From Gordonia sp. (in: high G+C Gram-positive bacteria) (GTDB lineage Bacteria; Actinomycetota; Actinomycetes; Mycobacteriales; Mycobacteriaceae), in contig JASGFW010000003.1 of NCBI GenBank assembly GCA_047605305.1, positions 896 to 64,895 on the forward strand: a stretch of 64,000 bases of DNA, in the 5' to 3' direction. Each line of letters starts with the position of its first letter. Position 1 is the stretch's first letter. Below, piece by piece: positions 27,611 to 49,875 of the stretch. Under the pieces are notes generated by a model, which worked only from the letters and a program-made list of their open reading frames with translations, made no database searches and had not been told where the DNA came from. Position numbers and translations under genes: made by a program.

Positions 27611-28437
27611 CTGATGTGGTGGGCCGGGATCTGCCGTTGGTGCACGTCGCCGGGGTGGTAGTGGAATACGGCACGGCGCGCCGGCGTCGACGGGTATTGC
27701 ACGACGTGTCGTTACGTATCGATCCGGGTAAAACGCTTGGCCTTGTCGGTGAATCGGGTTCGGGTAAATCAACTCTCGGCAAGGCGATACTTGGGTTGGT
27801 TCCATTGGCTGCCGGCAGCATTCACTTTGACGGTGCGCGTATCGACAACGTTGGCCGTACCGAACGGCGACGCCTCGCCGAGCGCCTGCAGGCGGTGTTT
27901 CAGGATCCCTACGGTTCGCTCGATCCTCGGTTGCTCGTCGGGGAGATTATCGCCGAGCCACTACGCGGACAGTCTGCGGCGAGTATTCGGCGTCGTGTGG
28001 AGGAATTGCTCGATCTTGTCGGACTCACCCGCGATGCCGCCGAGCGTGCGCCGGCGGAGTTCAGCGGCGGTCAGCGTCAGCGTATCGCGATCGCCCGTGC
28101 CATTGCGCGATCGGCGGAAGTCATCGTGTGTGACGAGCCGGTCAGTGCGCTCGATCTGACCACGCAAGCCCGAATTCTCGATCTTTTCCTACTTCTACAG
28201 CAGGAACTCGGTGTGTCCTATCTCTTCATTTCCCACGACACCGATGTGGTGCGCCATATCAGTCACGATGTCGCGGTGCTCGAACAAGGCAGGTTCGTTG
28301 AGGATGGTCCCGTCACGCAGGTGATCCAGAGCCCGCGGCATCCTTATACTCGTCGGCTCCTCGAATCGTCTCCGGTGCTCGATATCGATGTGCAGCAGCA
28401 ACGCCGGTCACGTCGTCTTTCCTCGAATAATGGCTGA
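27607..28437 (+). CDS. ABC transporter ATP-binding protein (DppF/OppF-like)
   Basis: Walker A GESGSGKST, signature SGGQRQR and Walker B VIVCDEPVSALD. ATGA overlap with the upstream gene. Confidence 0.9.
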   Translation: MTDVVGRDLPLVHVAGVVVEYGTARRRRRVLHDVSLRIDPGKTLGLVGESGSGKSTLGKAILGLVPLAAGSIHFDGARIDNVGRTERRRLAERLQAVFQDPYGSLDPRLLVGEIIAEPLRGQSAASIRRRVEELLDLVGLTRDAAERAPAEFSGGQRQRIAIARAIARSAEVIVCDEPVSALDLTTQARILDLFLLLQQELGVSYLFISHDTDVVRHISHDVAVLEQGRFVEDGPVTQVIQSPRHPYTRRLLESSPVLDIDVQQQRRSRRLSSNNG

Positions 28438-30541: not shown

Positions 30542-30737
30542 GCGATATAGCCATATCGCGAGCTGACGGGTGAACCCACTGGAGAGAACGTCGTAGTGAC
30601 GTGAAACTCCCCGGGCAGGCGCCTGTCGGTGGCAACAGACCGTGTGCGTCGGGTCGGAAATCCGGCGTACAGATACGCATGATCCATCCCGGTGGGTCTG
30701 CCGTGTCGATGACATCCAGGTCAAGGAGACTAAGCAA

Positions 30738-31106
30738 GTGATTCAGCAGGAATCTCGCCTGCGGGTCGCCGACAACACCGGAGCCAAGGAAATCTTGTGC
30801 ATCCGTGTGCTGGGCGGCTCGTCTCGGCGTTATGCCGGCATTGGTGACGTGATCGTCGCCACTGTCAAGGACGCCATCCCCGGCGGCAACGTCAAGCGGG
30901 GAGAGGTCGTTAAGGCAGTCGTCGTGCGCACCACCAAGGAGCGCCGCCGTCCGGACGGAAGCTACATCCGTTTCGACGAGAACGCCGCCGTCATTCTCAA
31001 GAATGAGAGCGACCCCCGCGGTACCCGCATCTTCGGCCCGGTTGGCCGTGAGCTGCGTGAGAAGAAGTTTATGAAGATCGTGTCGCTGGCACCGGAGGTG
31101 ATCTGA
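30738..31106 (+). CDS. rplN: 50S ribosomal protein L14
   Basis: GTG at 30738 with an AAGGAG RBS at 30723-30728. [18 protein letters not shown]... is a canonical L14 sequence (122 aa). Confidence 0.97.
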
Positions 31107-31107
31107 C

Positions 31108-31425
31108 ATGAAGGTGCACAAGGGTGACACCGTGATCGTCATCTCGGGCAAGGACAAAGGCGCCAAGGGCAAGGTTATTCAGGCCTTCCCGAAGGAGCAG
31201 CGTGTTCTCGTCGAGGGCGTCAACCGCATCAAGAAGCACACCGCCGCCTCGGCTAACGAGCGTGGCGCATCCTCTGGCGGCATCGTGACCCAGGAGGCCC
31301 CCATCCACGTCTCGAACGTGATGGTTGTGGATTCCGACGGCAACCCCACCCGCGTCGGATACCGCGTGGATGAGGAGACCGGCAAGAAGGTCCGGATTTC
31401 CCGCAAGAACGGGAAGGACATCTGA
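31108..31425 (+). CDS. rplX: 50S ribosomal protein L24
   Basis: [23 protein letters not shown]... matches L24. Confidence 0.97.
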
Positions 31426-31426
31426 G

Positions 31427-32029
31427 ATGACCACTACTGAAACTGTTAACGGCAGCTCTGCCGAGAAGATCACGCCGCGGCTCAAGACTCGCTACCGCGA
31501 GGAGATCAAGGACGCGCTGAACACGGAATTCGACTACGCCAACGTGATGCTGATCCCGGGCGTGGTGAAGGTCGTGGTGAACATGGGTGTCGGCGACGCC
31601 GCCCGCGACGCCAAGCTCATCAACGGTGCCGTCGCTGACCTTGAGCTGATCACCGGCCAGAAGCCCGAGATCCGTCGGGCGCGCAAGTCGATCGCGCAGT
31701 TCAAGCTTCGTGAAGGCATGCCCATCGGTGCCCGCGTCACCCTGCGTGGCGACCGTATGTGGGAATTCCTGGATCGTCTCGTGTCGATCGCCTTGCCGCG
31801 TATCCGTGACTTCCGTGGACTCTCCGACCGCCAGTTCGACGGTAATGGCAACTACACCTTCGGTCTGAATGAGCAGTCGATGTTCCATGAGATCAACATC
31901 GACAAGATCGACCGGCCGCGGGGTATGGACATCACCGTCGTCACCTCGGCGACGACTGACGACGAGGGCCGTGCGTTGCTGCGTCACCTCGGCTTTCCGT
32001 TCAAAGACAACTCCGTGAAGGACAACTGA
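31427..32029 (+). CDS. rplE: 50S ribosomal protein L5
   Basis: ATG at 31427. [15 protein letters not shown]... and the rest of the L5 core are present. The upstream part of the track ORF overlaps rplX out of frame. Confidence 0.96.
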
Positions 32030-32549: not shown

Positions 32550-33458
32550 ATGGCGATTGTGCTCGGCGAGAATCAGTACGGCAAGGCGGAGAACCGGGTG
32601 GTGCGGATCTACCGCGACACCGAACGGCACGAGATCAAGGACGTTCGGGTGGGGAGTGCGTTGCGCGGTGATTTCGCCGCCGCCCACACCGAGGGTGATC
32701 AATCCAAGGTGCTCCCTACCGATACTCAGAAGCAAACGATCTACGCCTATGCCAAAGAGGTGGGCATCTCCACCATCGAGGAGTACGGGCTGGCGCTGGC
32801 CCGGCATTTCGTCGACGATTTCGAGCCGGTTGTCGGCGCACGTCTGGAGATTGACGAATACGACTGGGAGAGAGCCGTTGTCGACGGCGTCGAACATAAC
32901 CACACGTGGATTCGCAAGGGGCAGGAAGTCCGCACCACCGATATCACGGTGGACGGTGTCGGCGACGAGCAGCAGACGTACGTCGTCAGTGGCCTCAAGG
33001 AACTGGTGGTACTGAAGTCGACCGGCTCGGAGTTCAAGGATTTTCTCGTCGACAAGTACACGGTGCTCGAACCGACATCCGATCGGGTGATGGCGACGTC
33101 GCTGGCGGCCAAGTGGCGCTACCTCGGCACCGAGGTTGATTGGGATGGCGTCTATGCCGGAGTTAAATCGATCATTGTGGCGAAATTCGCGACGGTGCAT
33201 TCTCTGGCCCTGCAGCAGACCCTCTACGAGATCGGGACTGCGGTACTGCAGGAGTATCCCGAGATCGCCGAAATCAAATTGTCGGCGCCCAACAAACACC
33301 ACTTCGTCTATGACCTCGCCCCATTTGGGCTGGAGAACAATAACGAGGTGTTCCACGCCGACGACCGCCCCTACGGCCTCATCCAGGCGACGGTTATCCG
33401 CGACGACGCTCCTGCCGCGGGGTTAGCCTGGACGGGGCAGCTGGGCTGGCTCGCTTAG
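32550..33458 (+). CDS. Urate oxidase (factor-independent urate hydroxylase)
   Basis: The start is set at ATG 32550 (GAGGTG 5 nt upstream). MAIVLGENQYGKAENRVVRIYRD..., LKSTGSEF and SAPNKHHF match bacterial uricase well. The 57 in-frame upstream codons of the track ORF are probably leader. Confidence 0.9.
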   Translation: MAIVLGENQYGKAENRVVRIYRDTERHEIKDVRVGSALRGDFAAAHTEGDQSKVLPTDTQKQTIYAYAKEVGISTIEEYGLALARHFVDDFEPVVGARLEIDEYDWERAVVDGVEHNHTWIRKGQEVRTTDITVDGVGDEQQTYVVSGLKELVVLKSTGSEFKDFLVDKYTVLEPTSDRVMATSLAAKWRYLGTEVDWDGVYAGVKSIIVAKFATVHSLALQQTLYEIGTAVLQEYPEIAEIKLSAPNKHHFVYDLAPFGLENNNEVFHADDRPYGLIQATVIRDDAPAAGLAWTGQLGWLA

Positions 33459-33547
33459 ATTGGCGAGGTAGGAGGCTCGGCTGGCGAGTAGACCACGCCT
33501 AGCCCCGACACAGGTGTAGCGGACGGGGCGTCGAAAGGACTCCGCCG

Positions 33548-35524
33548 ATGGTGTTCGGGTTGTCAGAAATCGGTCCGGATGATCTGCGCGACGATGTGTG
33601 GGTCGATCTGCTTCCTTGGCTTGACTCCTACGAGTCGGCGGACGCTGCTTACCTTGAGGCACTTGTTCCCGGTGTGCCGGATTGGTGGATCTCCGATAGC
33701 CCGCGCGTAACCGCGGCGGGTGTAAACCTCGGGGAGCTTGTGACGGAGTTGGGGCGTCTCATTGTGCGCAGACACCGCCGAACAGCGTTCGGTGAGCTCA
33801 TGCCCGGACTTGACCGGTCGATCCCACTCGCGTCGCTGAGGCTTGGCCCGCGCGCGGAGACCGTGATTCGCAGACTGACGGCACGTGACTTCGTCGCCGT
33901 TCTGTTGGCTGCCGATGTTCGGACAATGCTGGCCCTCCGCGGGACCAGTTTGGAGTCCGTTGAGCTCATTGCGGGGGCGATTGTTGGTGCGGCCCTCCGG
34001 GTCGCTCCCGCAATCGGCGTCGGCTCGGATGAGGAGACTGAGAACCCCGTTGCTGCACAGGTGGTCGATGACTTGCGATTGCTGGCGCGTTGGCGACGGT
34101 TGCGTGCGCACCCGGATGATCAGCTGATCGAGGTTGCCCTCGAGGATGACGTTCCGGAGCCGGTGCAAGAGGCGGCTGCGCGCCTGGCCGCGGTCACCGG
34201 CCGGGACCTCGATGACCTGGTTGAACCGAATCCGATCGATGAGATCGAGAACCTCATTGAACAGCTTGATGAACGGCAAGAGGTGGTACTGCGTTCGTAT
34301 CTGATGTCTTTAGCACCGATATCGATGGGCGAATTGAGTTCGCGTTTGCACGTGAGCAAGAGTCGGGCGGGTGTGATAGCGGCCGGAATCAAGAACGACT
34401 TTGCGTCGAAGTGCGGATTCGATACCGCCGCAGGGGGGCTTCTTGCCAGTATTCGCACGGAGATCGCACCGGTGGCCCCGCTGGACAGGTTGCTCCGCCA
34501 GCATCCAGTGCTCGAACAGATTGTTCCGAGTCTGGGTGTGCCGTTGTGGCTGGTGCTTGATCGCCTCGATGACTACTTCGAAGTGATTGGGTCGTGGGCG
34601 GTCACGCCTGACCTTGCATCAGCCAAGGCGCGGACAATCACCATGCTCGAACAGTTTGAATCCGAGAATGGTGTTGTGGCGATGGATATCGCCGCTGAGA
34701 CACTCGGGTTGGCATCCGAGGACGCAGTGCGCTGGCTGCATGATTGTGAGATTCGCGTCGTTGCCGGGCATGTTTTGCTGGATACTCGGCGGATGGCCGA
34801 CCATGCTGTTGGAATCCTGGAAGCGCTTGGTACTTCTCTCTCCATCGGCGAACTGGTCGAGATCCTCGATACAGATAAGTCCCCGACCTCGGTGCTCCAC
34901 GTTCTGGCCGACGATGAACGGGTTTGTATGCGTGAGGGGCGGTGGGCACTGGCAGTGGGGGCGTCGACGACTGAGCCCCCGAACGTGGCGAAGAGTAAAG
35001 ATATCCGGCGAACGCGGCGCCTGTACCGGGTTGATGGTAGATGGTGTTACCGGATGGTGGTGTCGTCGAATCATCTGCGGGGTGCGGGCGTTGCGATTCC
35101 TGCCGGAGTTGCTCTCGCCTTCGGATGCCGGCCGGGGACAATTCGAGAGATTGCCAGTCAGCTTGGGCCACAAACGATTCGGTGGACAGGTGTCAGCCCG
35201 ACGTGCGGAACGATCAGGAGGTTTCTTGCCGAGCTTGGAGTGCAACCGAAAGACGTTGTTTTCCTGACATTTTCGGATTCTTCGGGATTTGACATCGTTC
35301 CGCAGTCGCCTTCGGCTACCAGAGACCCGCTGCGTCGAGCCCTTGCACTCCTGGGGCATCGCGCGCCTGACGACGTGGCCGAATCTGAGCTGGTCGGGAT
35401 AGTGGCAAGTGCCGTGGGGCTTCCAAGTGACTCGAAGCCACGTAACATTCTGCGAATCTTTCAATCACGTGACGAGCCGGTGGCTCAATTGTTGGAAGAT
35501 AAATGGGTGTTCGTGCCGCAATGA
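33548..35524 (+). CDS. Hypothetical protein A of the cassette, 658 aa, putative multi-domain DNA-binding protein (HhH-like, sigma-r4-like HTH, possible B3/EcoRII-N-like pseudobarrel)
   Basis: A long ORF whose stop overlaps the next gene's ATG (ATGA at 35521-35524). Domain guesses come from sequence patterns only, so the function is unknown. Confidence 0.75.
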   Translation: MVFGLSEIGPDDLRDDVWVDLLPWLDSYESADAAYLEALVPGVPDWWISDSPRVTAAGVNLGELVTELGRLIVRRHRRTAFGELMPGLDRSIPLASLRLGPRAETVIRRLTARDFVAVLLAADVRTMLALRGTSLESVELIAGAIVGAALRVAPAIGVGSDEETENPVAAQVVDDLRLLARWRRLRAHPDDQLIEVALEDDVPEPVQEAAARLAAVTGRDLDDLVEPNPIDEIENLIEQLDERQEVVLRSYLMSLAPISMGELSSRLHVSKSRAGVIAAGIKNDFASKCGFDTAAGGLLASIRTEIAPVAPLDRLLRQHPVLEQIVPSLGVPLWLVLDRLDDYFEVIGSWAVTPDLASAKARTITMLEQFESENGVVAMDIAAETLGLASEDAVRWLHDCEIRVVAGHVLLDTRRMADHAVGILEALGTSLSIGELVEILDTDKSPTSVLHVLADDERVCMREGRWALAVGASTTEPPNVAKSKDIRRTRRLYRVDGRWCYRMVVSSNHLRGAGVAIPAGVALAFGCRPGTIREIASQLGPQTIRWTGVSPTCGTIRRFLAELGVQPKDVVFLTFSDSSGFDIVPQSPSATRDPLRRALALLGHRAPDDVAESELVGIVASAVGLPSDSKPRNILRIFQSRDEPVAQLLEDKWVFVPQ

Positions 35525-36960
35525 CCGATGAAATTGCGGCTGTGTCGCGCGCACTAGGGCTTCATCACACCCTGGTTACCGCGATAGCCGACCTTGTGGA
35601 TAACTGTATAGACGCCGGGGCTCGGCATGTCCTGATCCGCTTCGTGCAGTCCGGGCGTTTGATCCAAGGTGTGCAGATCGTGGACGACGGACACGGGATG
35701 ACCAGAGCCACAATGGAGTCGGCTGTCCTATATGGAGTTGGTCGGCTTCATGACGACCGCGATCACGGGCACTTCGGCGTAGGTATGAAAGCTGCATCGT
35801 TCAGCCAGGCCAACGAATTGGCGGTGTACTCGCATGGTGCAGGCTCCGATTCGGCTGCATGCCGACTGTCAGTGACGGGGCGCCATGACGCTCCGGTTGT
35901 CGAGTGGCTGCCGACCGGGGTTGCGGAGGATGTCCTCGCGGAGATGAAGCCACGGTTCCCTTTTACGAGTGGAACGATTGTTGAATGGCGGGGCGTCCGA
36001 ACGTTTCCGTTGTCGGCATCCACCGACGAACAGGTCGAGTGGCTGGAAACAGCGATCAATGACGTGCAGGTGTGGCTCGGTCTGGTCTTTCATCGGTTGC
36101 TCGACGCTGGCCTCACTATCACCATTGACGTGTTCGATGCTGCAGTCTCACGGCCCGGTGCGCCGCGGTTAGTGCGCGCCATCGACCCATTCGGGTATCG
36201 GCGGTCTGGTGCCGTCGGGTATCCGCGCGTGGTCGAGTTGGGGATCGGGATGTCGATGACGCTCCATGTGTGGCCGGCCCGTGCAGGTGGGCTGGAATTC
36301 AAGATCGGCGGATCGCCGGGGCGTGAAGCGCAGGGATTCTTTGTCTATCGCAATGATCGACTGCTCAATTGTGGGGGTTGGCTCGGGGTGTTACGCCCGC
36401 GGCCTGAATGGGCGCTGGCCAGGGTTGAAATCGACTTGAATCAGGTGCTCAGTGACCATGTCACGATCAACCCGGAGAAGGCCGGAGTCGTCTTCGACGC
36501 GACGATCACAGCGGCACTTTACGAGGTCCTGACTGCGGGCTACCTCGAGGATGCCGCCCGGGTGTTGAAAGTGGCGCGTCGGGGAGAGCACAAGCCGATC
36601 ACTGTGGTCGAACCAGGGGCGGGGCTGCCCGACGAAGTTGCCGATGAGTTTGCCGATACCTTCACATTTTCTGAGACTGCAGACCCGGTTGACATTGGCT
36701 GGAGGGTACTTAAGGCGGACCAGTTCTTCGACGTCGATCTCGACAACCGCGCGTTATGGATTAACTCTCGCTACCGGCGGCGGCTCGGTGGGCGAAAACA
36801 ATCCGACGTCGAGGTTCCGCTCCTCCGCACGCTGGTGTTCCTGCTTACGCAGGACATGTTCGATGTTGTGCGGCATAGTGCCAGGCAGAGTGAACAGATC
36901 GCCGCCTGGCAGCGTGTACTGATAGCGGCGATGGTGGCTGAGGAGGTCGACGGACGATGA
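35521..36960 (+). CDS. GHKL-superfamily ATPase (HATPase_c_3, MORC/MutL-like), cassette protein B
   Basis: Bergerat-fold motifs: N-box DLVDNCIDAGA, DDGHGM and G2-box GHFGVGMKAAS. The ATG at 35521 (ATGA coupling) is preferred over the in-frame ATG at 35503. Confidence 0.85.
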   Translation: MTDEIAAVSRALGLHHTLVTAIADLVDNCIDAGARHVLIRFVQSGRLIQGVQIVDDGHGMTRATMESAVLYGVGRLHDDRDHGHFGVGMKAASFSQANELAVYSHGAGSDSAACRLSVTGRHDAPVVEWLPTGVAEDVLAEMKPRFPFTSGTIVEWRGVRTFPLSASTDEQVEWLETAINDVQVWLGLVFHRLLDAGLTITIDVFDAAVSRPGAPRLVRAIDPFGYRRSGAVGYPRVVELGIGMSMTLHVWPARAGGLEFKIGGSPGREAQGFFVYRNDRLLNCGGWLGVLRPRPEWALARVEIDLNQVLSDHVTINPEKAGVVFDATITAALYEVLTAGYLEDAARVLKVARRGEHKPITVVEPGAGLPDEVADEFADTFTFSETADPVDIGWRVLKADQFFDVDLDNRALWINSRYRRRLGGRKQSDVEVPLLRTLVFLLTQDMFDVVRHSARQSEQIAAWQRVLIAAMVAEEVDGR

Positions 36961-39887
36961 TCGAGGTGTTGATGGACGCGATCGTCCGTGAGTTCAATCC
37001 TGACCATCCACCCGCTCGGGTGCTGGGTGCCGTATGCGGTCGACTTATCGATACCGGGCACAATCCGGTGGATATTGAGACCGTCGTCGACGTCATTATC
37101 GATGAGCAGGCGGTTGCGGTGGGAACGGCCGTACGATCGGCGCTCACCCGATGGGACGTGGAGCGGACAGCGCCGTGGATTGATGATTCTGAACCACTAT
37201 CCGTGTCGCGTCGCGAGCTCATCTACAGCCGGCTTGGTATTCCGGCGGCTGCGTTCAGTCCGCTCACTGCACGATTCCCGATCGCCGGCGGACCGACAGT
37301 GATAGCGGCGCAACAGCCATGGGAGCCGTGGTACACGTTAGAGCGTCGATCCGAACGCAACTTTTATTGGCGTGCATACCGCGGCGTGCTTTCTGGTAAG
37401 GGCTGGGACAACCAGACGATCGATGCGCTCGATATCGCGACTTCCGAGGTCGTGCAACGGCTCGCCGATCCGACGAGGGAGGAGCCCTACCAATCGAAGG
37501 GGCTTGTCGTTGGCTATGTGCAGAGCGGTAAGACCGCCAATTTCACCGGTGTGGTGGCGAAGGCGATGGATGCGGGTTACCGCCTGATTATTGTGCTCAC
37601 CGGAACCATCGAACTTCTCCGCAGTCAGACGCAACGCCGACTCGATATGGAACTGATCGGTGTGCAGAACATCGATCCCACGGAGTATGAGAATGACGAG
37701 GACTGGCTTGATGGCAAGTTCCTTGAGCATGTCGTCGACCCAAATCACTCCAACGATGCCCCGGCAGTGCGTCGTCTCACCGGTGCTGTCGATGATTATC
37801 AGGCGCTGGCGAAGGGGATCGGTACGCTGCATTACGAGTTTGTCGATCACGGGCGCCCCCTGATTGATCCGGTGAATTTGTTCGCCAGCAACGTACGTGT
37901 CGCGGTCGTCAAGAAGAATGCGCTGGTGCTGCAGAAGCTCGTCGCCGATGTTGGCAAGATTCCGACTGCGCTCGATCAGATCCCTACGTTGATCATCGAC
38001 GACGAAGCTGACCAGGCATCGGTAAACACCGAGAATCCCAAGAAGTTCGTCGAGGGACGGGTCGGTCGCACTGCGATCAATCGTCATATAGCTGGCCTTC
38101 TCGGCCTGTTGAAGAGGGCCCAATATGTGGGCTATACGGCTACCCCTTTCGCGAATGTCTTCGTTGATCCCGAGGATGAGGTGAATATCTTCCCGAGCGA
38201 TTTCATCGTTAGCCTGGACCGCCCCACGGAGTACATGGGTGGCGCCGATTTCCATGATCGCGGCAACGATTTTGATGAAGGCGTCGTACCAACGGTGGCC
38301 AACTCCAACGAAAAGGCTTTTGTGCGAGACCTGAGACCGCAGTGCGATCAGGATCGCGACGCGGAGCGTCTTCGTGCCCTCGATTCCTTCGTGTTGGCGG
38401 GTGCGGTGAAATTATTCCGTGAGCATAGGGGCGTGAAGGGAGATTTCCGCCATCACACGATGCTCGTTCATGAGTCGGTGAAGCAGAGTGAGCACCGTGC
38501 CCTTGCGGATGATTTCACTACCTTGTGGAAGACTGCCGCTTATAGTCAGGCGGTAAGCCTGAGCCGGTTGGAAGAGCTGTGGGAGAACGATTTCCGCCCA
38601 GTATCGGAGTGCCGCGCCGCTCCTGGCGTGGTGTCCGCAGAAACTTTTGATGATTTGGTGCCATTCATCGGGGCGGCTTGCGACCGGATCGGCGAGGGTA
38701 TGGCACCGGTCATCGTCGTCAACGGTGATGCCGACAAGGACTATCAACAGGAACCGCTCAATTTCCAGCAGCGTCGGGTGTGGAAGATTCTTGTCGGGGG
38801 TACCAAGCTGAGTCGCGGTTTCACGGTAGAGGGGTTGACCACGACCTACTACACTCGCCGTACCGCCCAGGCGGACACACTCATGCAGATGGGACGTTGG
38901 TTCGGCTTTCGTCCTGGTTACCGTGATCTGGTACGGCTTTTTATCGGTCGTGAAGTACCAGGTCCTGCCGGGAGGCTGTTTGATCTGTACCGTGCCTTCG
39001 AGGCGGTCGTCGAAGACGAGGAAGAATTCCGCGCAGAGTTGGACCGCTTCAAAGGGCTCAACTCCGATGGCGAACCGATGGTGACTCCACGCGACGTGCC
39101 GCCCATGGTGTTTCAACGGCTGCCGTGGCTCAAACCAACTGCCGGAAACAAGATGTACAACGCGGAGCTCGCGTATCGGAGTGTGGGTGGGCAGAGCTTC
39201 AGCTTCACTATGCAGGGGCCACGCGGAGATGGTTCAAATAACGTCACCCACTTTGCGGCGGTCAGACCGATTCTGGATGCTGCCAAGGAGGAGGGGCGCT
39301 TCTCTTTTATCGACAAGGACGACCGCAGCCGGCAATTTGATGCACACTATGGAATCGTCCCGGCGCCGATGATCCTCGATGTGGTCGATCAGTTCATCTG
39401 GGATACGAATTGGGATTTCACACCCCACCGTGAGGCGTTCGTCCGCGCGATGGAACGGGGCGTGTTGGCGGACTTTGCAGTGTTGATTCCCCTTCCGAAG
39501 ACACGATCGCCGATTCAGATTGGGGACTATCCTAAGCTACTGCCGATCGTGCACCGTAAGCGTCAGGAGGCTGCCTATCGGACAGGTTTCACCGGAACGG
39601 CCGTGCGGGAACGAGATGCGATCGAGCACATAGCGGGAAATCCGGAGAAGAAGGTGGGCGGGCCACTGGCGCAACGCCTCTACCGGCCCGATCGCGGCGC
39701 TATGATTATGCTGTTCGCCAGCGATCCCAAGTCGGAACGGCACTTCAAGTCTATAGACCGTGGCCGAGTCAACCCACGCGATGTGGCGACGCTCTTTTCC
39801 TACGCACTCCCATACGCGGCGGACCCATCGCCGAAGATTGGCTTCACCACCAAACAATCGGGTGCGGGCGCGATTATCGATGCCTGA
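36957..39887 (+). CDS. Z1-domain protein with P-loop/DEAD-like NTPase core, cassette protein C
   Basis: 976 aa ORF with Walker A GYVQSGKT and Walker B LIIDDEADQAS. The C-terminal KLSRGFTVEGLTTTYYTRR...LMQMGRWFGFRPGYRDL block is characteristic of the Z1 domain. ATGA overlap with gene B. Confidence 0.85.
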   Translation: MIEVLMDAIVREFNPDHPPARVLGAVCGRLIDTGHNPVDIETVVDVIIDEQAVAVGTAVRSALTRWDVERTAPWIDDSEPLSVSRRELIYSRLGIPAAAFSPLTARFPIAGGPTVIAAQQPWEPWYTLERRSERNFYWRAYRGVLSGKGWDNQTIDALDIATSEVVQRLADPTREEPYQSKGLVVGYVQSGKTANFTGVVAKAMDAGYRLIIVLTGTIELLRSQTQRRLDMELIGVQNIDPTEYENDEDWLDGKFLEHVVDPNHSNDAPAVRRLTGAVDDYQALAKGIGTLHYEFVDHGRPLIDPVNLFASNVRVAVVKKNALVLQKLVADVGKIPTALDQIPTLIIDDEADQASVNTENPKKFVEGRVGRTAINRHIAGLLGLLKRAQYVGYTATPFANVFVDPEDEVNIFPSDFIVSLDRPTEYMGGADFHDRGNDFDEGVVPTVANSNEKAFVRDLRPQCDQDRDAERLRALDSFVLAGAVKLFREHRGVKGDFRHHTMLVHESVKQSEHRALADDFTTLWKTAAYSQAVSLSRLEELWENDFRPVSECRAAPGVVSAETFDDLVPFIGAACDRIGEGMAPVIVVNGDADKDYQQEPLNFQQRRVWKILVGGTKLSRGFTVEGLTTTYYTRRTAQADTLMQMGRWFGFRPGYRDLVRLFIGREVPGPAGRLFDLYRAFEAVVEDEEEFRAELDRFKGLNSDGEPMVTPRDVPPMVFQRLPWLKPTAGNKMYNAELAYRSVGGQSFSFTMQGPRGDGSNNVTHFAAVRPILDAAKEEGRFSFIDKDDRSRQFDAHYGIVPAPMILDVVDQFIWDTNWDFTPHREAFVRAMERGVLADFAVLIPLPKTRSPIQIGDYPKLLPIVHRKRQEAAYRTGFTGTAVRERDAIEHIAGNPEKKVGGPLAQRLYRPDRGAMIMLFASDPKSERHFKSIDRGRVNPRDVATLFSYALPYAADPSPKIGFTTKQSGAGAIIDA

Positions 39888-39908
39888 TCGGAACCAACGA
39901 GGGGAGCT

Positions 39909-40769
39909 GTGATGGCCAAGGTGATCGCCACCATTAGTTTGAAAGGTGGTGTCGGGAAAACCACGGTGACGGCCGGACTCGCGGAGTTCATGTCAGCCGA
40001 GTTTGGCCAGCGGGTGCTGCTGATCGATCTCGATTCCCAGATTAACCTCACCACCATGATGATCAGTGAGGCCCGGTGGTTCGAGTTGAATACCAACGGG
40101 CGCACGCTGGCCGCATTGTTTGCCGATGCCATCAGTGGGACGAGTTACTTCGATCTGGACCGCTCGATCCAGCGGGGAGTGTCGCCGGTGACGCGAGTGA
40201 CTACGGTGGACTTGCTGGCGTCGTCGCTCGACCTCATCGAAGTTCAAGAGGAGCTGAGCGCGATGCGCGTCGGCGGCAGAGACCCCAAGGGCGCGGTGAC
40301 TATTCTACGCAAGGCAATTGCCCCGATCATCGGTTTCTATGATTACGTCTTGATCGATTGCCCGCCCACCATTGGTCCGGTGACACTTAACGGACTTGCG
40401 GCCGCCGATGCCTACATCATCCCGACCATTCCGGATCATCTGTCCACGTATGGGATTCCGCAGATTCAGAGTCGGGTACGTCGCTTCGGTGAGGAGATTG
40501 GTCGCACTGTAATCGAACTGGGCGTGGTGATTACCAAGTTCAAATCCAATTCAACGGTGCACCGGTCCACCACCAGGCGACTACGGCGCGACCAGACCAT
40601 TGCGCATGTCTTGCCCAGCTATATCAATGAAGCGAATTCTATTGCCGCATCGGCAGAGTTCGCACCGTATGGAACATTGAAGGCAAAGTATGGCGCCCAG
40701 GGGCAGTTCGATCAGTTCCGTGGTCTGACCACCGATGTGATGACCGAAGCGCAGGAGAAGATTCGATGA
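39909..40769 (+). CDS. ParA/MinD-family ATPase, cassette protein D
   Basis: Deviant Walker A SLKGGVGKTT, LLIDLDSQ, and VLIDCPP (Walker B region). GTG at 39909 or ATG at 39912, with GAGGGGAG upstream. Confidence 0.85.
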   Translation: MMAKVIATISLKGGVGKTTVTAGLAEFMSAEFGQRVLLIDLDSQINLTTMMISEARWFELNTNGRTLAALFADAISGTSYFDLDRSIQRGVSPVTRVTTVDLLASSLDLIEVQEELSAMRVGGRDPKGAVTILRKAIAPIIGFYDYVLIDCPPTIGPVTLNGLAAADAYIIPTIPDHLSTYGIPQIQSRVRRFGEEIGRTVIELGVVITKFKSNSTVHRSTTRRLRRDQTIAHVLPSYINEANSIAASAEFAPYGTLKAKYGAQGQFDQFRGLTTDVMTEAQEKIR

Positions 40770-41257
40770 GTTCCGATGATGCTCGCCGCAGAGTGGGGTA
40801 CCAGGCCGTCGCGGGCGCGCTGGCACAGCTTGATGTCAAGAATCCGGTCGCTGCACAACTCATCGCCGGGCTTACACAAGCTGTCATCGACGAGGCTGAC
40901 CGCTCGGCGCGTTTCGCCGCGGCACTGGCGCGCGTCATCGAAGCGCTGCGCCCAAACGACGGTACGACGATCGCCGTGCCCGTCCCGTCGCCGCGTAAAC
41001 CTGCGGCGGCACCGAGGCGGCGTGTGGTGCGTGCTCCCGGCGCGCTCGATCCCTTCGTGGTCTATCGGGAATCCGGCGCACTTGGTTTGACTTCACAGCT
41101 GGGGGAGCTGACCGTCGATCAACTTCGGGACATCATCGCCGAACAGGAACTAGACACCCGTAAGGAGACCGGGCGCAAGCGGAAACCGGAGGTCCTTGTG
41201 GTGTGGATCGTCGAACGGGTCGAGGCATCGGAGAATAAGGGGAGTGTCTTTCGGTAG
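40766..41257 (+). CDS. Hypothetical protein E of the cassette, 163 aa, Ala/Pro/Arg-rich linker and charged C-terminal region
   Basis: ATGA overlap with the ParA-like gene stop. No family was recognised. Confidence 0.65.
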   Translation: MSSDDARRRVGYQAVAGALAQLDVKNPVAAQLIAGLTQAVIDEADRSARFAAALARVIEALRPNDGTTIAVPVPSPRKPAAAPRRRVVRAPGALDPFVVYRESGALGLTSQLGELTVDQLRDIIAEQELDTRKETGRKRKPEVLVVWIVERVEASENKGSVFR

Positions 41258-41473
41258 GGCGAACTTGCCATCGGAGGCGTGTCTGGCAGAGTTGGCAGTG
41301 GATCGCCCGTGGGGTCCGGTTCTGGTTCCCGCGGTTGTTATGCCTCCCGGGACTTTGCGTACATCGCACCTCTCGCGGAGTATGCTGTTTCTGCAGGCGC
41401 CGTCGACATCTCCGATTCCGAGTGCTCCCGGTCTCCATGGCCGGGTTCATTGCGGCCCGTATTAGGCAAAAGC

Positions 41474-42271
41474 TTATGGCAGGTGCCCTTCGCCCGCGGG
41501 CGGCAGACGAGGCACGGCATCGATTAGCGCCCGGGTATAGGGATGCGCCGGGGCGGCGAGCACGTCGGCGGTACGTCCGTGCTCGACCACCTCGCCGCGG
41601 CATAGAACCAGCACCTCGTCGCATAGGCGGCGGACGACGCCGAGATCATGCGATACCAGGATCAGCGATAATCCCAGGTTTGCGACCGACGATTCGACGA
41701 GACGCAGAATGTCGGCACGCACCGTGGCATCCAGTGCCGAGAACGGTTCGTCGCCGATGAGTACGGCGGGCCGTGGTGCCAAGGCCCGTGCGATGGCGAT
41801 GCGTTGGCGCTGGCCTCCGGAGAACTGGTGTGGGAAAAGCGATCCGGCGTCTGCGTCGAGGCCGACGGCCGCCAGTAGTTCGGCAACCCGTGCATCATTG
41901 TCGCCGTCGATGCGTAAGCATTCCAGGGGTTCGGCGATGATGTCGCGTACCCGCATCCGCGGATCCAGGCTCCGGTAGGGGTCTTGCAGCACCACCTGCA
42001 CCTCGCGGCGGAACCACGACATATCGCGGGCAGTCGTCACCGCGCGCCCGCGAAATCGCACTGTTCCGGCGTCTGGTTGTTCCAGCCCGAGGAGTAGACG
42101 CAGCAGCGTCGACTTACCCGCCCCGGATTCACCGACAATCCCGACCCTTCCGCCCTCGGGCAGCGTGACGCTCACATCGGTTAACGCCTGGCGCACACCG
42201 CCGCTGCGCAATAGTGAGGGCCGCGGTAGTCGGTATGCACGGGTCAATCCGTGGGCTTCCAGTAGCGTCAT
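41474..42271 (-). CDS. ABC transporter ATP-binding protein (DppF/OppF-like)
   Basis: Walker A GESGAGKST, signature SGGQRQR and Walker B VLIGDEPFSALD. ATGA overlap with the upstream ATPase gene. Confidence 0.9.
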   Translation of the reverse strand: MTLLEAHGLTRAYRLPRPSLLRSGGVRQALTDVSVTLPEGGRVGIVGESGAGKSTLLRLLLGLEQPDAGTVRFRGRAVTTARDMSWFRREVQVVLQDPYRSLDPRMRVRDIIAEPLECLRIDGDNDARVAELLAAVGLDADAGSLFPHQFSGGQRQRIAIARALAPRPAVLIGDEPFSALDATVRADILRLVESSVANLGLSLILVSHDLGVVRRLCDEVLVLCRGEVVEHGRTADVLAAPAHPYTRALIDAVPRLPPAGEGHLP

Positions 42272-43041
42272 GGCGCCAACTCCCGGGCCGAGGTGACAAG
42301 TGCGCGCGTGATCGGATCCGACGGTGCGGCCAGCACCTGTTCGAGTGTTCCGGTCTCGCGAACGCGCCCGGCGCCCAGCACCGCAACGCGGCGTGCCACC
42401 TGCGCGAGGACCGCGAGGTCGTGCGTGACGAACACCAGCGCCGTCCCGCGTTCGTCGGTGAGTTGCCGCAGCAGCCGCAAGATTTCGGCCGCAACAGTGA
42501 CATCGAGTGCGGTGGTCGGCTCGTCGGCGATCAGCAATTCCGGTTCCGTAGCCACCGCTGCGGCGATACAGACGCGCTGGCGTTGCCCACCGGAAAGCTG
42601 GTGCGGGAACGCCCGCACCGTCTCCTCAGGATCTGGAAGACCCACTCGCGCAGCCAATTCGATGGCGGCACTGCGCGCGGCCCGACGTGAATAGCCGCGA
42701 TGCAGGCGCAGCGGTTCTGCGATATGTGCGCCCACGCGTTGCAACGGATCCAATGACGAGGCGGGTTCCTGAAAGATCATCGAAATCCGGTTGCCCCGGA
42801 TACGCGATAATTCCCGATCCGGACGGCCGATTAGTTCGGTGCCGTCAAACCGAACGTTTCCGGTCACCGTGGCGGCATCCGGCAGTAACCCCAGGATCGC
42901 CAGCGCCGTCAACGATTTCCCGGATCCCGATTCACCGATGACACCCCACCGCTCACCGCGATCGAGGGCCAGATCGATGCCGTCGAGCAACCTGCGTCCG
43001 CCTATCTCGACAGTCAGGGAGTCAACCTCCAGCAAGCTCAT
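42268..43041 (-). CDS. ABC transporter ATP-binding protein (DppD/OppD-like)
   Basis: The start is set at ATG 43041 (MSLLEVDSLTVEIGG...), which forms an ATGA overlap with the permease stop. Walker A GESGSGKS, signature SGGQRQR and Walker B LLIADEPTTALD are present. The N-terminal 295 codons of the 552 aa track ORF overlap the permease gene out of frame and are rejected. Confidence 0.88.
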   Translation of the reverse strand: MSLLEVDSLTVEIGGRRLLDGIDLALDRGERWGVIGESGSGKSLTALAILGLLPDAATVTGNVRFDGTELIGRPDRELSRIRGNRISMIFQEPASSLDPLQRVGAHIAEPLRLHRGYSRRAARSAAIELAARVGLPDPEETVRAFPHQLSGGQRQRVCIAAAVATEPELLIADEPTTALDVTVAAEILRLLRQLTDERGTALVFVTHDLAVLAQVARRVAVLGAGRVRETGTLEQVLAAPSDPITRALVTSARELAP

Positions 43042-43901
43042 CGTGTGTGCGTACCCCTCGGATCGATCGCATCGCGTATTGAGTCGCCGAGTAGGTTCAG
43101 GCCCAATACTGTCAGCGCGACAGCAAGACCGGGCCACACGACCAGCATCGGTCGGGCGGTGATGTAGGCCTGCTGTTCGTGGAGAATGCCACCCCAGGAC
43201 GGCGTCGACGGCGACGCGCCGTAGCCGAGATAGCTCAACGCGGCCTCCGCGAGCACGGCGAGCGCCGCCACCAGTGACAGTTGCACGACGAGCGTCGGGG
43301 CGACCGCAGGCAATGCGTGCCGTCGGATGATCCGGGCGGTGCGCGCACCGGCTGCCCGCGCCGCGAGGACGTAGTCGGCGGCCAACGCACCTGCGAGCTC
43401 CGCGCGGACGACGCGCGACACGACGACGGAGAAGCTCACTCCGAGTGCGACGATCACGATCGTCGTTGACGGACCGTACATGGCGGTCAGCACCATCGCC
43501 AGCAGGATCGTGGGGATGGCAATCACCACGTCGATCAGCTGGACTACTGCGGCGGCCAGCGGGCGCGGCGTGAGCGCAACGATCAATGCGAGTGTGCCGC
43601 CTAAGATTCCGGAGAACACGGCAGTCCCCACCGCCACCGCGAGGGTCTGCCGTGCAGCGGCCACCAGGAGGCTGAACTGGTCGCGGCCCACGCGATCGGT
43701 ACCGAGTAGATGCCCGCCCTGAAATGGCAGCAACCAAGCGTGTTCGGGATCGGTGGCCTGCGGATCGAATGGGGTCCACACTGCGCCGATGACGGATGCC
43801 GCCACGAGTATCGACACCACCGCCACGCCAAAGGCGCCCGTGGGGGTTCGGAGTACGGTGCCGAGCACGGCCCGTCCGCGGCCATCGCGTGTCGCGCTCA
43901 T
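43038..43901 (-). CDS. ABC transporter permease (DppC/OppC-like)
   Basis: 287 aa ORF with 6 TM helices and a typical BPD_transp_1 organisation. Confidence 0.88.
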   Translation of the reverse strand: MSATRDGRGRAVLGTVLRTPTGAFGVAVVSILVAASVIGAVWTPFDPQATDPEHAWLLPFQGGHLLGTDRVGRDQFSLLVAAARQTLAVAVGTAVFSGILGGTLALIVALTPRPLAAAVVQLIDVVIAIPTILLAMVLTAMYGPSTTIVIVALGVSFSVVVSRVVRAELAGALAADYVLAARAAGARTARIIRRHALPAVAPTLVVQLSLVAALAVLAEAALSYLGYGASPSTPSWGGILHEQQAYITARPMLVVWPGLAVALTVLGLNLLGDSIRDAIDPRGTHTR

Positions 43902-44848
43902 GCCTGGCCGCCGAGCCGCGGATCAATCAGCCGATGAATGACGTCAACGATGAACCACACCGTGATCACCACCGCGACTACGAGAATCAGTTCCCCCTGC
44001 ACCTTCCCCAGGTCTCGATTGGCGATATCGGTGACGATCATCGATCCGATACCCGGCAGGGTGAACACCTGTTCCACGACGACGGCGCCGCCAAGCAGTG
44101 CCGCTATCTGCAATCCGAGTACCGCGATCACCGGGGCCGCCGCATTGCGGAATCCGTGCCGTACCAGCGCACGGGTCCGGGTGTTGCCGGCCGCGCGTGC
44201 AGCGGTGAGGAATTCCGATGACAGCACACCGAGTACTGCCGAACGCACGAACCGCAACAAGACGGCCCCCTCGGTCAATCCCAATGCCAGCCAGGGCAAT
44301 ACGAGCGATCGCAGTGCTGCACCAGGCTCCGACCAGCCAGCCGATGGGAAGCCCTGCGCGGGCAGGAGTGGTAATCCCACGGCGAACACGGCCACGAGCA
44401 ACAGCGCCAGCCACAGCGAGGGGATAGCGATACCGATCTGTGCTATCGCGCCGACGGCAGCGCCATCGACCCGGCGGGCGCGCACGGCCGCCCACGTTCC
44501 CAAGGGGATAGCCGATCCGGCGCTAATCGCTATGGCGCCCAATGCGAGCGGCACCGAGACCTGCGCCTTGCGCCCCAACTCGCCGACGACCGATGTCCCG
44601 TTCAATGCTGACTTGCCGAGGTTGCCGCTGAGTAGATCGCCGATCCACGACACGTACTGCACGATCAGGGGACGGTCCAAGCCGAGATGGGAGCGGATCG
44701 CTGCGACTTGTTCAGGTGTGGACTCCGTCCCTCCGATGGTCGTCGCCACATCCCCGGGCAGCATGCGCAGCAGTATGAACACCACTACGCTCGCCACCAC
44801 GAGAGATGCCGCCAGCCAGCCCAGTCGGCGCAGTACGTACCATGTCAC
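43898..44848 (-). CDS. ABC transporter permease (DppB/OppB-like)
   Basis: 316 aa ORF. MTWYVLRRLGWLAASLVV... is a typical N-terminus. Confidence 0.88.
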   Translation of the reverse strand: MTWYVLRRLGWLAASLVVASVVVFILLRMLPGDVATTIGGTESTPEQVAAIRSHLGLDRPLIVQYVSWIGDLLSGNLGKSALNGTSVVGELGRKAQVSVPLALGAIAISAGSAIPLGTWAAVRARRVDGAAVGAIAQIGIAIPSLWLALLLVAVFAVGLPLLPAQGFPSAGWSEPGAALRSLVLPWLALGLTEGAVLLRFVRSAVLGVLSSEFLTAARAAGNTRTRALVRHGFRNAAAPVIAVLGLQIAALLGGAVVVEQVFTLPGIGSMIVTDIANRDLGKVQGELILVVAVVITVWFIVDVIHRLIDPRLGGQA

Positions 44849-44849
44849 G

Positions 44850-46415
44850 CTACTTCTCGACGGCCACGTGGGTGAGGTTCAATCGACTCGACGTCTGATT
44901 CGCCGGGACGCCGTACACGCCCTTGCGGACGACGGTGAACGTCTGCGACAGCAGTAGCCAATCGGCCGGTGCGTCCGATGAGATCTGTCGGGCGACCTTC
45001 TTGAGCAATGCGTCCCGATCGGCATCGCTGGCAGCCGTCTGCGACTCCTCGTACCACTGCTTCACCTGTGGGTTGTTGTAGCCGAAGTAGTAGTCGGGCC
45101 GGGTGTAGATATTCAGATCCCGGCTCTCGGCGTGATCAACCAGGCTCAGCTGGTAATTGTGATTGGTGTACACATTGGTCAGCCAGGTCTGGAATTCCAC
45201 CTGGCGCACGGTGAGCGTGATTCCGGCCTGCTTCAGATCGGATACGAGCACATCGGAGATCGTCGTCGGATAGATGTTCGGCACATCGAGGGTCAGCTTC
45301 AACCCGTCTGGGTGGCCGGCGTCGGCGAGCAGTTTTTTCGCTGCCGACACATCATGCGGGTCGATGGACGTCAAATCTTCATACCAGGGATCCTGCGGTG
45401 GTACCGGCGCACCGATGCGCACTCCGGCACCAACTGCCTTGATCACCGCGTCTTTATCGATCGCCTGACGGATCGCGTGCCGTACCCGAGGATCGTTGAG
45501 CGGAGCGACGCGCTCGTTGAACGCGAGCGTGAACTTATCGGTGGTGGAGCCGCGCAATATGGTGAATTTGTCGCCCGAGAAAGGTTGCAGCAGAGTGGAA
45601 TCAGCGGCCGTCTCGACGTCGGTCTGGCCGGTACTTTGGGCGTTGTTCGCGGTGTTGGCTTCCTTGATGTAACTCAGCGCTATCTCGGCGACTTTGGGCT
45701 TTTCGCCCCAGTAGTCGTCGTTGCGAGTCAGCGTGATGCCCGAACCCCGGTTCCAGTTGGCCAACTTGAAGGGACCCGAACCGTTCTCCGCACCATCGAG
45801 TTTCGTGAAGTCGGTGCCCTGGCGGTAGACGATGCCGCCGCGCTGGGCGAGGTTCCACAGCAAAGAGGTGTCGCGCTGTTTGAGCGTGATCTTCAACGTA
45901 TTGGCATCCACTGCCGTGGCCTGTGTAACTGAGGTGAATGCCGATGCGCGCACCGATTTCGAATCCGGGGCGAACTGCTGTTGCAACGACCACGCGGCGT
46001 CGGCGGCGGTCAGCGGCGCGCCGTCGTGGAATCGTGCACCCGATACCAGCTTGAACGTATAGGTGAGACCATCGGCGCTGATATCCCACGATTTCGCGAG
46101 CTGGGGCACGATCTGGTTCTTGTTGGCCGTGTCTATGGTCACCAGGTTCTGGTACACGTTATCGAGCAGGATCTGGTCGAGTGCTGTTCCCGCGGTGGTG
46201 AAGATATTCAGGCTCGTGGGTTCGAGTACCAGTCGCACCTTCAGAGTGGCATTCGTATTCAGTTTATCCGCCGACGGTGCGGCGCCCAGAGATGCCGGAG
46301 CCGAAGAGGTGGTTGCCGGTTGCGCGCCGGTGCCGCACGCCACGAGTGTGGAGGCTGCCAGCACCGCTGACGCGGCGAGCCACATACGGCCGTGGTGAGG
46401 TTTGTGCAGTTTCAT
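44850..46415 (-). CDS. ABC transporter substrate-binding lipoprotein, family 5 (peptide/nickel type)
   Basis: The start is set at ATG 46415 (MKLHKPHHGRMWLAASAVLAASTLVACG, which contains a lipobox), with a GGAGAG RBS upstream. The track ORF starts 33 codons earlier. Confidence 0.85.
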   Translation of the reverse strand: MKLHKPHHGRMWLAASAVLAASTLVACGTGAQPATTSSAPASLGAAPSADKLNTNATLKVRLVLEPTSLNIFTTAGTALDQILLDNVYQNLVTIDTANKNQIVPQLAKSWDISADGLTYTFKLVSGARFHDGAPLTAADAAWSLQQQFAPDSKSVRASAFTSVTQATAVDANTLKITLKQRDTSLLWNLAQRGGIVYRQGTDFTKLDGAENGSGPFKLANWNRGSGITLTRNDDYWGEKPKVAEIALSYIKEANTANNAQSTGQTDVETAADSTLLQPFSGDKFTILRGSTTDKFTLAFNERVAPLNDPRVRHAIRQAIDKDAVIKAVGAGVRIGAPVPPQDPWYEDLTSIDPHDVSAAKKLLADAGHPDGLKLTLDVPNIYPTTISDVLVSDLKQAGITLTVRQVEFQTWLTNVYTNHNYQLSLVDHAESRDLNIYTRPDYYFGYNNPQVKQWYEESQTAASDADRDALLKKVARQISSDAPADWLLLSQTFTVVRKGVYGVPANQTSSRLNLTHVAVEK

Positions 46416-46751
46416 CGTGGGCTCTCCTGACAGGTGAACGGGGTCAATCGCAGATCTGGGGTGAGAGTGCGTGGTTCTACCTCGGTCGGGATCAGCCTCG
46501 GACATGAGCTTCAATCACGCTGTCCCACAATGTCGCCAGGCTGTTTTCTGCAGAATCGAACACCGATAGCAGGCTCACGAAAAGTGAGCATAAGTGGTAG
46601 CCGCAGGCAACCTGGGACATCTGCGCGGGCTGGTTTCATCGGTCCTGGTTGGAGAGAGGAAACCGATAAATTTCACCGCGCGTCTAATTGTCGGTGCCAG
46701 CTAATTTTAAGCGTCGGGTAATCGGGACGTGACTCGCGTCGACGATCGTGG

Positions 46752-47820: not shown

Positions 47821-48219
47821 ATGACCATGACTGACCCGATCGCAGACTTCTTGACGCGTCTGCGCAACGCCAATTCGGCGTACCACGACGAGGTGACTCT
47901 CCCGTCGTCGAAGCTCAAGGTGAATATCGCCGAGATCTTGAAGCGCGAGGGCTACATCACCGATTACCGCACCGAAGATGCGGAGGTCGGCCGTAACCTC
48001 GTCGTTACCCTGAAGTATGGCCCCTCCCGTGAGCGCAGCATTGCCGGCTTGCGCCGCGTGTCCAAGCCGGGCCTGCGGGTGTATGCAAAGTCCACCAACT
48101 TGCCCAAGGTTCTGGGCGGCCTCGGCGTGGCCATCATCTCCACGTCGTCGGGCCTGCTCACCGACCGCCAGGCAGCCAACCAGGGCGTGGGCGGCGAAGT
48201 CCTCGCCTACGTCTGGTAG
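47821..48219 (+). CDS. rpsH: 30S ribosomal protein S8
   Basis: [18 protein letters not shown]... is a canonical S8 sequence. Confidence 0.98.
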
Positions 48220-48234
48220 GGGAGACACTAAACA

Positions 48235-48771: not shown

Positions 48772-48774
48772 GCC

Positions 48775-49179
48775 ATGAGTGATACAGCAACCAAGACCGT
48801 TCGTAAGCCGCTCGGCAAGGACGTCTCGACTCGTCGTCGCACCGCGACCACGAATCGTCATTTCCGTCTTCGTAAGAAGGTCTCCGGCACGCCCGAGCGT
48901 CCGCGTCTGGCCGTCAAGCGCAGCAGCCGTCACATCCACGTGCAGTTGATCGACGATTTGGCCGGCACCACGCTGGCCGCGGCATCGTCAATCGAGGCCG
49001 ACGTGCGTGCCGCCGGTGGCGACAAGTCGGCTCAGGCCCGTAAGGTCGGCGAACTCATCGCCGCTCGGGCCAAGGCAGCCGGCGTTAACGCCGTTGTGTT
49101 CGACCGTGGTGGCAAGGACTACCACGGCCGGATTGCGGCGCTCGCCGACGCCGCCCGTGAGGGAGGCCTGCAGTTCTGA
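48775..49179 (+). CDS. rplR: 50S ribosomal protein L18
   Basis: [34 protein letters not shown]... matches L18. Confidence 0.97.
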
Positions 49180-49870: not shown

Positions 49871-49875
49871 GCATC

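Follow-up and report, generated by a model that had tools for sequence, protein, structure and literature searches.

Mza is an anti-phage system that was reportedly first described by Gao et al. in 2020. Its E. coli and Salmonella versions have been tested and validated, with the MzaD nuclease cutting DNA and the system causing no growth arrest (bioRxiv 10.1101/2022.06.16.496414). According to the literature, a Serratia 'novel mza subtype' also protects; hence, module exchange in the Mza family has a precedent. A second point of reference is furnished by the MORC-type restriction–modification (R-M) operons, in which a gene for a restriction endonuclease (RE)-fold protein is 'consistently' present and in which VP1/RAV (B3) DNA-binding proteins are also found (Iyer et al. 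2008, PMC2292703). Against this background, we describe a cassette of five open reading frames (ORFs), A-B-C-D-E, read directly from the sequence of a Gordonia sp. contig (JASGFW010000003.1), all on the + strand and occupying 33548-41257 of a 64-kb stretch of DNA; the whole of this stretch is referred to below as the window. The cassette is a real conserved unit and, as judged by sequence comparison, it is a module-swap variant of Mza rather than a new class, because B and C are homologous to MzaB and MzaC over their full length and the A family is found in the MzaA position.

A preliminary description of the locus had proposed an undescribed system. At the level of composition this stands: no PADLOC, NCBIfam or Pfam model covers A-E, nothing in the literature that we searched describes the combination, and our literature searches recovered no ParA-containing variant of Mza (the PADLOC 2021 paper does not mention Mza). 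At the level of class it does not, given the homologies of B and C and the position of A. The reading that we favour, and consider somewhat more probable than its negation, is that of a single operon, in which an Mza/paraMORC-type core, A-B-C, is combined with a ParA-adaptor pair, D-E, in place of the nuclease and AIPR, the whole serving to exclude invader DNA without dedicated cleavage.

The homologies of B and C were assessed with Mza models taken from PADLOC and NCBIfam. B aligns along its full length with the Micromonospora MzaB and comprises a GHKL ATPase, an S5-type transducer and a helical C-terminal region. It matches Pfam HATPase_c_3 (E 8e-19) and PADLOC MzaB (E 9.5e-22), and the Bergerat-fold motifs on which the preliminary description had relied are indeed in place (the N-box DLVDNCIDA, DDGHGM and GHFGVGMKAAS), together with the conserved transducer lysine (NPEK); 15-17 of 17 orthologues retain these motifs. 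Among solved structures, MORC2, MutL, MORC3/4 and SMCHD1 come closest. As B reaches only 111 bits against the NCBIfam MzaB equivalog cut-off of 850, it is by this measure a distant homologue of MzaB and not an equivalog. C, in turn, aligns end to end with the Micromonospora MzaC, the C-terminus included, and matches PADLOC MzaC at E 1e-67 and NCBIfam MzaC at 271 bits (cut-off 1500). The Walker A and B motifs recognised earlier are present, as are GYTATPFAN and DTLMQMGRWFG, the latter being of the type given for this helicase class (Iyer et al. 2008, PMC2292703). The N-terminal 120 aa of C are family-specific, and sequence searches found no solved relative of the protein. Its closest plasmid relative (43% identity over 93% of the length) lies in a Dcm-linked R-M-type operon.

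A had been described as a large putative DNA-binding protein, and its domain matches agree. The family profile retrieves sigma-70 region 4 (E 6e-8) and the RNA polymerase (RNAP) alpha C-terminal domain (alpha-CTD; E 1.5e-6) from the PDB, and the AlphaFold2 (AF2) model (predicted local distance difference test score, pLDDT, 86) matches, in Foldseek searches of the PDB, the tandem winged helices of SelB/UFL1, sigma region 4 and plant B3 domains, with probabilities of 0.9-0.98, a target TM-score (TMt) of ~0.5 and weak E-values; the B3/EcoRII-N-like assignment of its beta domain is suggestive only. The earlier statement that A and E match no family is correct in that neither has a Pfam or PADLOC family, but A does carry a sigma-70 region-4 helix–turn–helix (HTH) and an alpha-CTD-like domain. 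The A family consists of 62 clusters, all from Actinomycetes, many members of which have a Pfam Sigma70_r4 (PF04545) match. An exact-sequence look-up of the window A returned no record, and the protein does not match PADLOC MzaA, the model of a large protein whose sigma-70-type HTH is C-terminal, at E<=1; two homologues, P0049 and P0062, match only the HTH end of that profile (E 3e-3 and 4e-5). A is an analogue of MzaA, possibly a distant relative, and not an orthologue.

The relatives of A place it repeatedly beside restriction-type systems, and where canonical MzaB-E are found, it is a member of the A family that takes the part of MzaA. Nine Micromonosporaceae loci contain a reversed Dcm gene, MzaB (384 bits), MzaC (648 bits), MzaD/DUF4420 and MzaE/AIPR, followed by an A homologue. 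The locus of Micromonospora sp. SL4-19 (L048, 352-18626) has the canonical Mza B-C-D-E genes with a divergent Dcm gene and the A homologue at the 3' end rather than MzaA at the 5' end; after the A homologue comes an opposite-strand gene for a 1922-aa AAA_11/AAA_12 helicase with nSTAND3 and MTES_1575 domains. In at least 15 further loci (Mycobacterium, Arthrobacter, Nocardioides, Modestobacter and others) an A homologue stands ahead of PbeA/PbeC, mostly beside dnd genes. The order in these loci (L030-L046 and L049, e.g., L049:10001-17073) is an A homologue of 25-28% identity, PbeA, a small ORF, PbeC and a dnd_assoc_4 gene, and in the Peterkaempfera contig L049 they adjoin dndBCDE; the PADLOC Pbe models do not match the A homologue of such loci. 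A few loci have truncated solo copies of A, one of which adjoins recBCD. Since A homologues both close MzaB-C-D-E+Dcm operons and precede PbeA/PbeC beside dndBCDE, the family is a shared DNA-recognition partner of restriction-type motors and systems.

The preliminary description had noted no methyltransferase, AIPR or recognisable nuclease in the cassette, and dedicated searches concur. When nine MzaD/PD-(D/E)XK sequences were compared by tblastn with the whole 64 kb, the best match had an E-value of 0.048; the corresponding values were 0.047 for MzaE/AIPR, with no Pfam AIPR match, and 0.071 for Dcm. MzaD is also absent from the 17 cassette loci described below, and no Dcm gene lies within +/-10 kb of them; Vsr was not searched specifically. 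A tblastn search of the window with a 1096-aa Arthrobacter partner likewise returned nothing. One might still envisage a conventional restriction system in which D-E is an accessory regulator and an unrecognised nuclease resides in the first 120 aa of C, in the C-terminal part of B or at the N-terminal end of A. This we hold to be improbable: the MzaD and MzaE profiles give hhalign probabilities of <1% against A, B, C and E; C has a C-terminus homologous to the one in canonical MzaC, a protein that nonetheless depends on MzaD; the Foldseek matches of the A model, a check that the preliminary description had called for, are to DNA-binding folds, and none is to a nuclease at a significant score; and no D-ExK, HNH or PLD motif is evident among the invariant alignment columns. 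A hidden nuclease or AIPR in the window was accordingly rejected on the tblastn and hhalign results.

Linkage speaks for a single unit. The description of five co-directional, tightly coupled ORFs is confirmed by re-reading: ATGA overlaps lie at A/B (35521-35524), B/C (36957-36960) and D/E (40766-40769), and C and D are separated by 21 nt, with a ribosome-binding site, GAGGGGAG, ahead of the GTG start of D. B may start at 35503 or 35521, the latter ATG being the one that gives the A/B overlap. Scanning one genome per species with an A profile yielded 47 A-containing loci, in 17 of which, from Gordonia, Rhodococcus, Rhodococcoides and Millisia (all Mycobacteriales), A-B-C-D-E occur in the same order. 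Their identity to the window proteins is 39-59% for A, 46-63% for B, 61-76% for C, 64-85% for D and 47-79% for E, and the divergences of the five proteins correlate pairwise (Spearman 0.61-0.81). The C-D gap measures 14-41 nt in these 17 cassettes, D and E overlap or are at most 14 nt apart with one exception (81 nt), and catalytic motifs are kept in 15-17 of the 17 orthologues. The flanks vary from locus to locus, featuring CRISPR Cas3 and GSU0053, HNH (in L006), TerD/RNase T, DinB and monooxygenases, and the cassette is patchily distributed, being absent from part of the species in each genus. Thus, with order and spacing kept in 17 other genomes, the homologues of A, D and E accompany the B+C pair well beyond the chance juxtaposition that had earlier been raised as a concern.

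Some individual loci deserve mention. CRISPR-Cas genes (Cas3 with a C-terminal HD domain and Cas_GSU0053) lie directly 3' of the cassette in Gordonia sp. VNQ95 and G. amarae (L003:17772-20165 and L004:17716-21927). C appears to be split or N-terminally truncated in Rhodococcus sp. 27YEA15 (L011:13772-16498) and Rhodococcus sp. 1168 (L018:13548-16458), which could be pseudogenisation or assembly error. An apparent Gordonia-Rhodococcus synteny, via the gene family f15, was rejected, as it rests on paralogues (38% identity) and not on shared ancestry of the site. Carriage of the cassette by plasmids or phages was similarly rejected: PLSDB holds no close copy of A or C (best 27.5% and 43%), and a phage collection holds no close copy of C (best ~35%).

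D is a bona fide ParA/Soj ATPase by its sequence: the deviant Walker A motif, KGGVGKTT, which had prompted the initial ParA/MinD-type assignment, is accompanied by DLDSQ and DCPP, and the protein matches Pfam AAA_31 (E 4e-35), as well as CbiA, and Soj and ParA in the PDB (E 3e-18). These motifs occur in 17/17 orthologues, including a KGGVGKS variant in L004. In the AF2 model of E, a three-helix bundle at the N-terminus is joined by a basic, disordered linker rich in Pro/Ala to a second three-helix domain, which ends the protein with KGSVFR. E has no Pfam family, nor have ten diverse members of its family, and Foldseek against the PDB gave only noise. The E-family profile gathers 655 clusters at 50% identity, mostly of proteins of 120-200 aa, with a signature comprising an N-terminal EAxRxPxF helix, a basic linker and a DPF...KGxxFR C-domain.

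That a ParA-like ATPase and a small partner accompany the GHKL and Z1 genes, as the preliminary description had it, is true of the cassette, where they are conserved, but the pair is not private to it: D-E is a widespread, autonomous two-gene module, for which neither Pfam nor PADLOC has a family and of which the literature searched gave no description. Relatives of D with 48-50% identity are found on Methylocystis, Rhizobium and Burkholderia plasmids, with a small E-like gene 3' of the D-like gene in both annotated records examined (Methylocystis and Burkholderia), and the Rhodococcus zopfii chromosome has a stand-alone pair (D 61% and E 38% identical); the hhalign probabilities of E against the downstream small genes are 98.6% (Methylocystis), 99.9% (R. 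zopfii) and 86.7% (Burkholderia). An initial, highly diverse alignment of E proved too degenerate to scan loci with, and a narrower one was used instead. Its profile found 80 metagenome loci, in essentially all of which a D-like gene (44-57% identity) lies directly upstream where upstream sequence is available; A, B and C are present in none of them. The surroundings are hypervariable: tyrosine integrases are present in 5 loci, and the neighbours further include Gabija GajA/B, HmaC, a type III restriction enzyme and a type II methyltransferase, although rpoC, smc and polA are found there as well. Among 2.9 million IMG/VR contigs, only 7 contain E-like genes. As the closest stand-alone D proteins found (57-65%) come from the same order, as against 44-57% for those of plasmids and metagenomes, D-E may have been recruited into the cassette within Mycobacteriales.

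Several stand-alone pairs have neighbours of interest. On metagenome contigs L107 (5928-11411), L096 and L082, D-E lies directly beside Gabija (GajA 801 and GajB 721 bits), HmaC (910 bits) and a type III restriction enzyme (624 bits). On L084 (3903-10976) and L088, it is followed by co-directional genes for a HARE-HTH protein, a 340-aa protein, a 778-aa protein and a type II methyltransferase; the 778-aa protein of L084 has GHKL-like motifs (Pfam E ~1e-3, hhalign against B 4%, no PDB match), and these loci may represent a second, independent link of D-E to a GHKL/R-M-type system. On the Methylocystis iwaonis plasmid pSS37A-Re-4 (L051, 3713-10923), D-E and a third small gene adjoin a ThiF/E2/multiubiquitin/DUF6527 cluster, which we take to resemble the Bil defence system, and also a CopG gene, a small hypothetical gene and a Fic-family gene; the plasmid carries type IV secretion genes and is typed in PLSDB as non-mobilizable. 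On Gordonia, Williamsia and Rhodococcus chromosomes (L053, L054 and L055), paralogues of D lie among housekeeping genes, with an E-like partner in L055 and none in L053 and L054.

This autonomy raises the alternative of two independent systems that happen to be adjacent, with A-B-C a decaying or incomplete Mza-like remnant, or one with an unlinked nuclease, and D-E a self-sufficient mobile module, their adjacency being maintained by descent without function. The D-E pairs that stand alone on plasmids and in no fewer than 69 metagenome loci speak for such a view, as do the confinement of all cassettes to one order, the rplE-rpsH site shared by five Gordonia loci and the apparently disrupted C in two Rhodococcus loci. 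Nevertheless, we consider it rather unlikely: among the 47 A-containing genomes there is no A-B-C of this subfamily without D-E; the operon-like spacing is kept while the flanks change; the five proteins retain their catalytic motifs at 40-60% divergence of A; and the D and E of the cassettes form a group of their own, 63-100% and 45-94% identical inside, compared with at most 65% for the stand-alone D paralogues of the same genera.

For the favoured single operon, we advance the following mechanism, in which we infer defence from homology and context, and in which the coupling of the modules and the nuclease-free output are likewise conjectural. A, with its transcription-factor-type domains, would act as a large DNA-recognition subunit; B would clamp or loop DNA in the manner of MORC/MutL-like GHKL ATPases and C would translocate. 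Together, A-B-C might detect and load onto incoming phage or plasmid DNA and then pass control to D-E, with E coupling the complex or the DNA target to D. ATP-bound D would bind DNA non-specifically, such that, with no dedicated cleavage, the invader is sequestered, mis-partitioned or excluded in some other way. It is also conceivable that D-E keeps the A-B-C motor on the host nucleoid or away from it. A bolder form of this idea, which we think improbable, is that a ParA-type ATPase and its adaptor constitute an immune effector arm that sequesters, mis-segregates or expels an invading replicon after recognition by A-B-C, with no nuclease, toxin or signalling molecule. If this were true, the stand-alone D-E of defence islands would itself be an unrecognised anti-plasmid or anti-phage module.

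Several observations weigh against the reading of one defensive operon: (i) no nuclease or other toxic effector was found in the cassette, and the output step is hence speculative; (ii) the 17 cassettes come from one order, several of the Gordonia loci being at the same chromosomal site, and part of the conserved linkage could thus reflect common descent; (iii) most of the cassette flanks are metabolic genes; (iv) D-E stands without A-B-C elsewhere, its 57-65% identical D paralogues lie among housekeeping genes of the same genera, and its cellular role may be unrelated to defence; and (v) centromere-like repeats are absent both from 33300-41600 and from the vicinity of two stand-alone D-E pairs, where the only matches are short, in two copies and no larger than chance would give.

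The setting of the cassette bears on a further alternative. As had been stated earlier, its flanks are unrelated to it: rplN-rplX-rplE and a uricase gene lie on the 5' side, whereas on the 3' side an opp-type ABC transporter, encoded on the other strand, precedes rpsH, rplF and the remainder of the cluster. The cassette is therefore located in the rplE-rpsH gap of the spc ribosomal cluster, in a window whose core proteins share 93-98% identity with their counterparts in Gordonia species. Its GC content is ~0.59 as against ~0.65 around it, and its GC3 0.64-0.69 as against 0.71-0.78 in the three neighbours measured (uricase, rplE and the adjacent ABC-transporter ATPase gene). One could suppose that the MutL/MORC-like clamp, the helicase and the ParA pair perform housekeeping or accessory DNA maintenance, be it nucleoid organisation, repair or segregation, rather than defence. 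To our knowledge, Mycobacteriales lack MutS/MutL mismatch repair. The location inside a ribosomal-protein gene cluster with metabolic neighbours, the core chromosomal contexts of D paralogues and the lack of a nuclease, toxin or modification enzyme in the cassette would all fit. However, such a role is very unlikely in our estimation, in light of the patchy distribution among the species of each genus, the GC and GC3 values below those of the flanks, the occurrence of the closest B and C relatives in Dcm-linked R-M-type and Mza operons and of A relatives in the Dnd/Pbe and Mza systems (with one truncated copy beside recBCD), and the CRISPR-Cas genes that adjoin the cassette in two loci.

The site itself is variable. 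In the window the rplE-rpsH gap (positions listed: 30642-32029 and 47821-52038) holds ~15 kb of variable cargo, namely the uricase gene, the cassette and the opp transporter; it also houses the cassette in other Gordonia (L001, L002, L005, L010 and L016 are listed for this site), and in Millisia the cassette adjoins rpsN. This gap may be a variable-island hotspot within the ribosomal operon region. A tRNA/integrase boundary was rejected, there being no tRNA and no Rfam family in the window, and scans for sigma-70 promoters and terminators gave results no higher than expected from shuffled sequence. The region is flanked by two paralogous ABC transporter operons of the opp/dpp type in opposed orientation, at 23299-28437 (+) and 41474-46514 (-). 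Low GC at 23-25 kb corresponds to the solute-binding-protein gene and at 62-64 kb to two BPD_transp_1 permease genes.

Table 1. Genes of the cassette and predicted domains of protein A (nucleotide positions in the window; aa positions in protein A)
Feature	Position	Strand	Description
Gene A	33548-35524	+	658 aa, multi-domain DNA-binding protein
Gene B	35503-36960 (alternative start ATG 35521)	+	485 aa, paraMORC/MutL-type GHKL ATPase
Gene C	36957-39887	+	MzaC-like SFII helicase homologue
Gene D	39909-40769 (GTG start)	+	286 aa, ParA/Soj-type deviant Walker A ATPase
Gene E	40766-41257	+	163 aa, small helical partner of D
A, RNAP alpha-CTD-like helix–hairpin–helix (HhH) domain	~aa 70-145		PDB profile match
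A, sigma-70 region-4-type HTH	34202..34378; aa 219-277 (~219-280)	+	PDB profile; weak NCBIfam TIGR02937 match
A, tandem winged helices	~aa 300-470		AF2/Foldseek
A, B3/EcoRII-N-like beta pseudobarrel (suggestive)	35015..35302; ~aa 490-585	+	Foldseek: B3 domains of VRN1, FUS3, VAL1, TEM1, ARF
A, helical tail	C-terminal to the beta domain		

These observations have implications beyond the locus. They expose a large uncharacterised two-gene family, a ParA-like ATPase with an E-like partner, on plasmids and in variable islands beside known defence systems. The A family, being common to Mza, Dnd/Pbe and the cassette, suggests that restriction motors of Actinomycetes that are unrelated in other respects have a specificity subunit in common. 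Further, as Gordonia and Rhodococcus are phage-hunting hosts, the cassette may explain limits to the host range of actinobacteriophages.

Set beside the described systems, the cassette shares with Mza homologous B and C proteins, although both fall far under the NCBIfam equivalog cut-offs; outside the HTH, A and MzaA share no homology, and a ParA-type ATPase and a small helical partner are found instead of the RE-fold nuclease MzaD and the AIPR protein MzaE. In the Mza operons of Micromonospora, moreover, the A homologue comes last, whereas A comes first in the cassette. Like the MORC-type R-M operons (Iyer 2008), the cassette pairs a GHKL+S5 ATPase with a distinct SFII helicase bearing the DThhQXuRhFG motif, but it lacks their cytosine methyltransferase and RE-fold gene and adds the D-E pair. 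With respect to ParF-ParG, McdA-McdB and Soj-Spo0J, D has all the ParA signature motifs, with Soj and ParA as its best solved matches, and E is small, encoded directly downstream of and overlapping D, and, like many adaptors that stimulate ParA, has a basic N-terminus and linker. Unlike these systems, E has no ParB, ribbon–helix–helix (RHH) or known adaptor fold, centromere-like repeats are lacking, and the pair is embedded in a chromosomal restriction-type operon. Finally, the Dnd-associated PbeA/PbeC modules of Actinomycetes start, just as the cassette does, with an A homologue, which at 25-28% identity has the same length and architecture.

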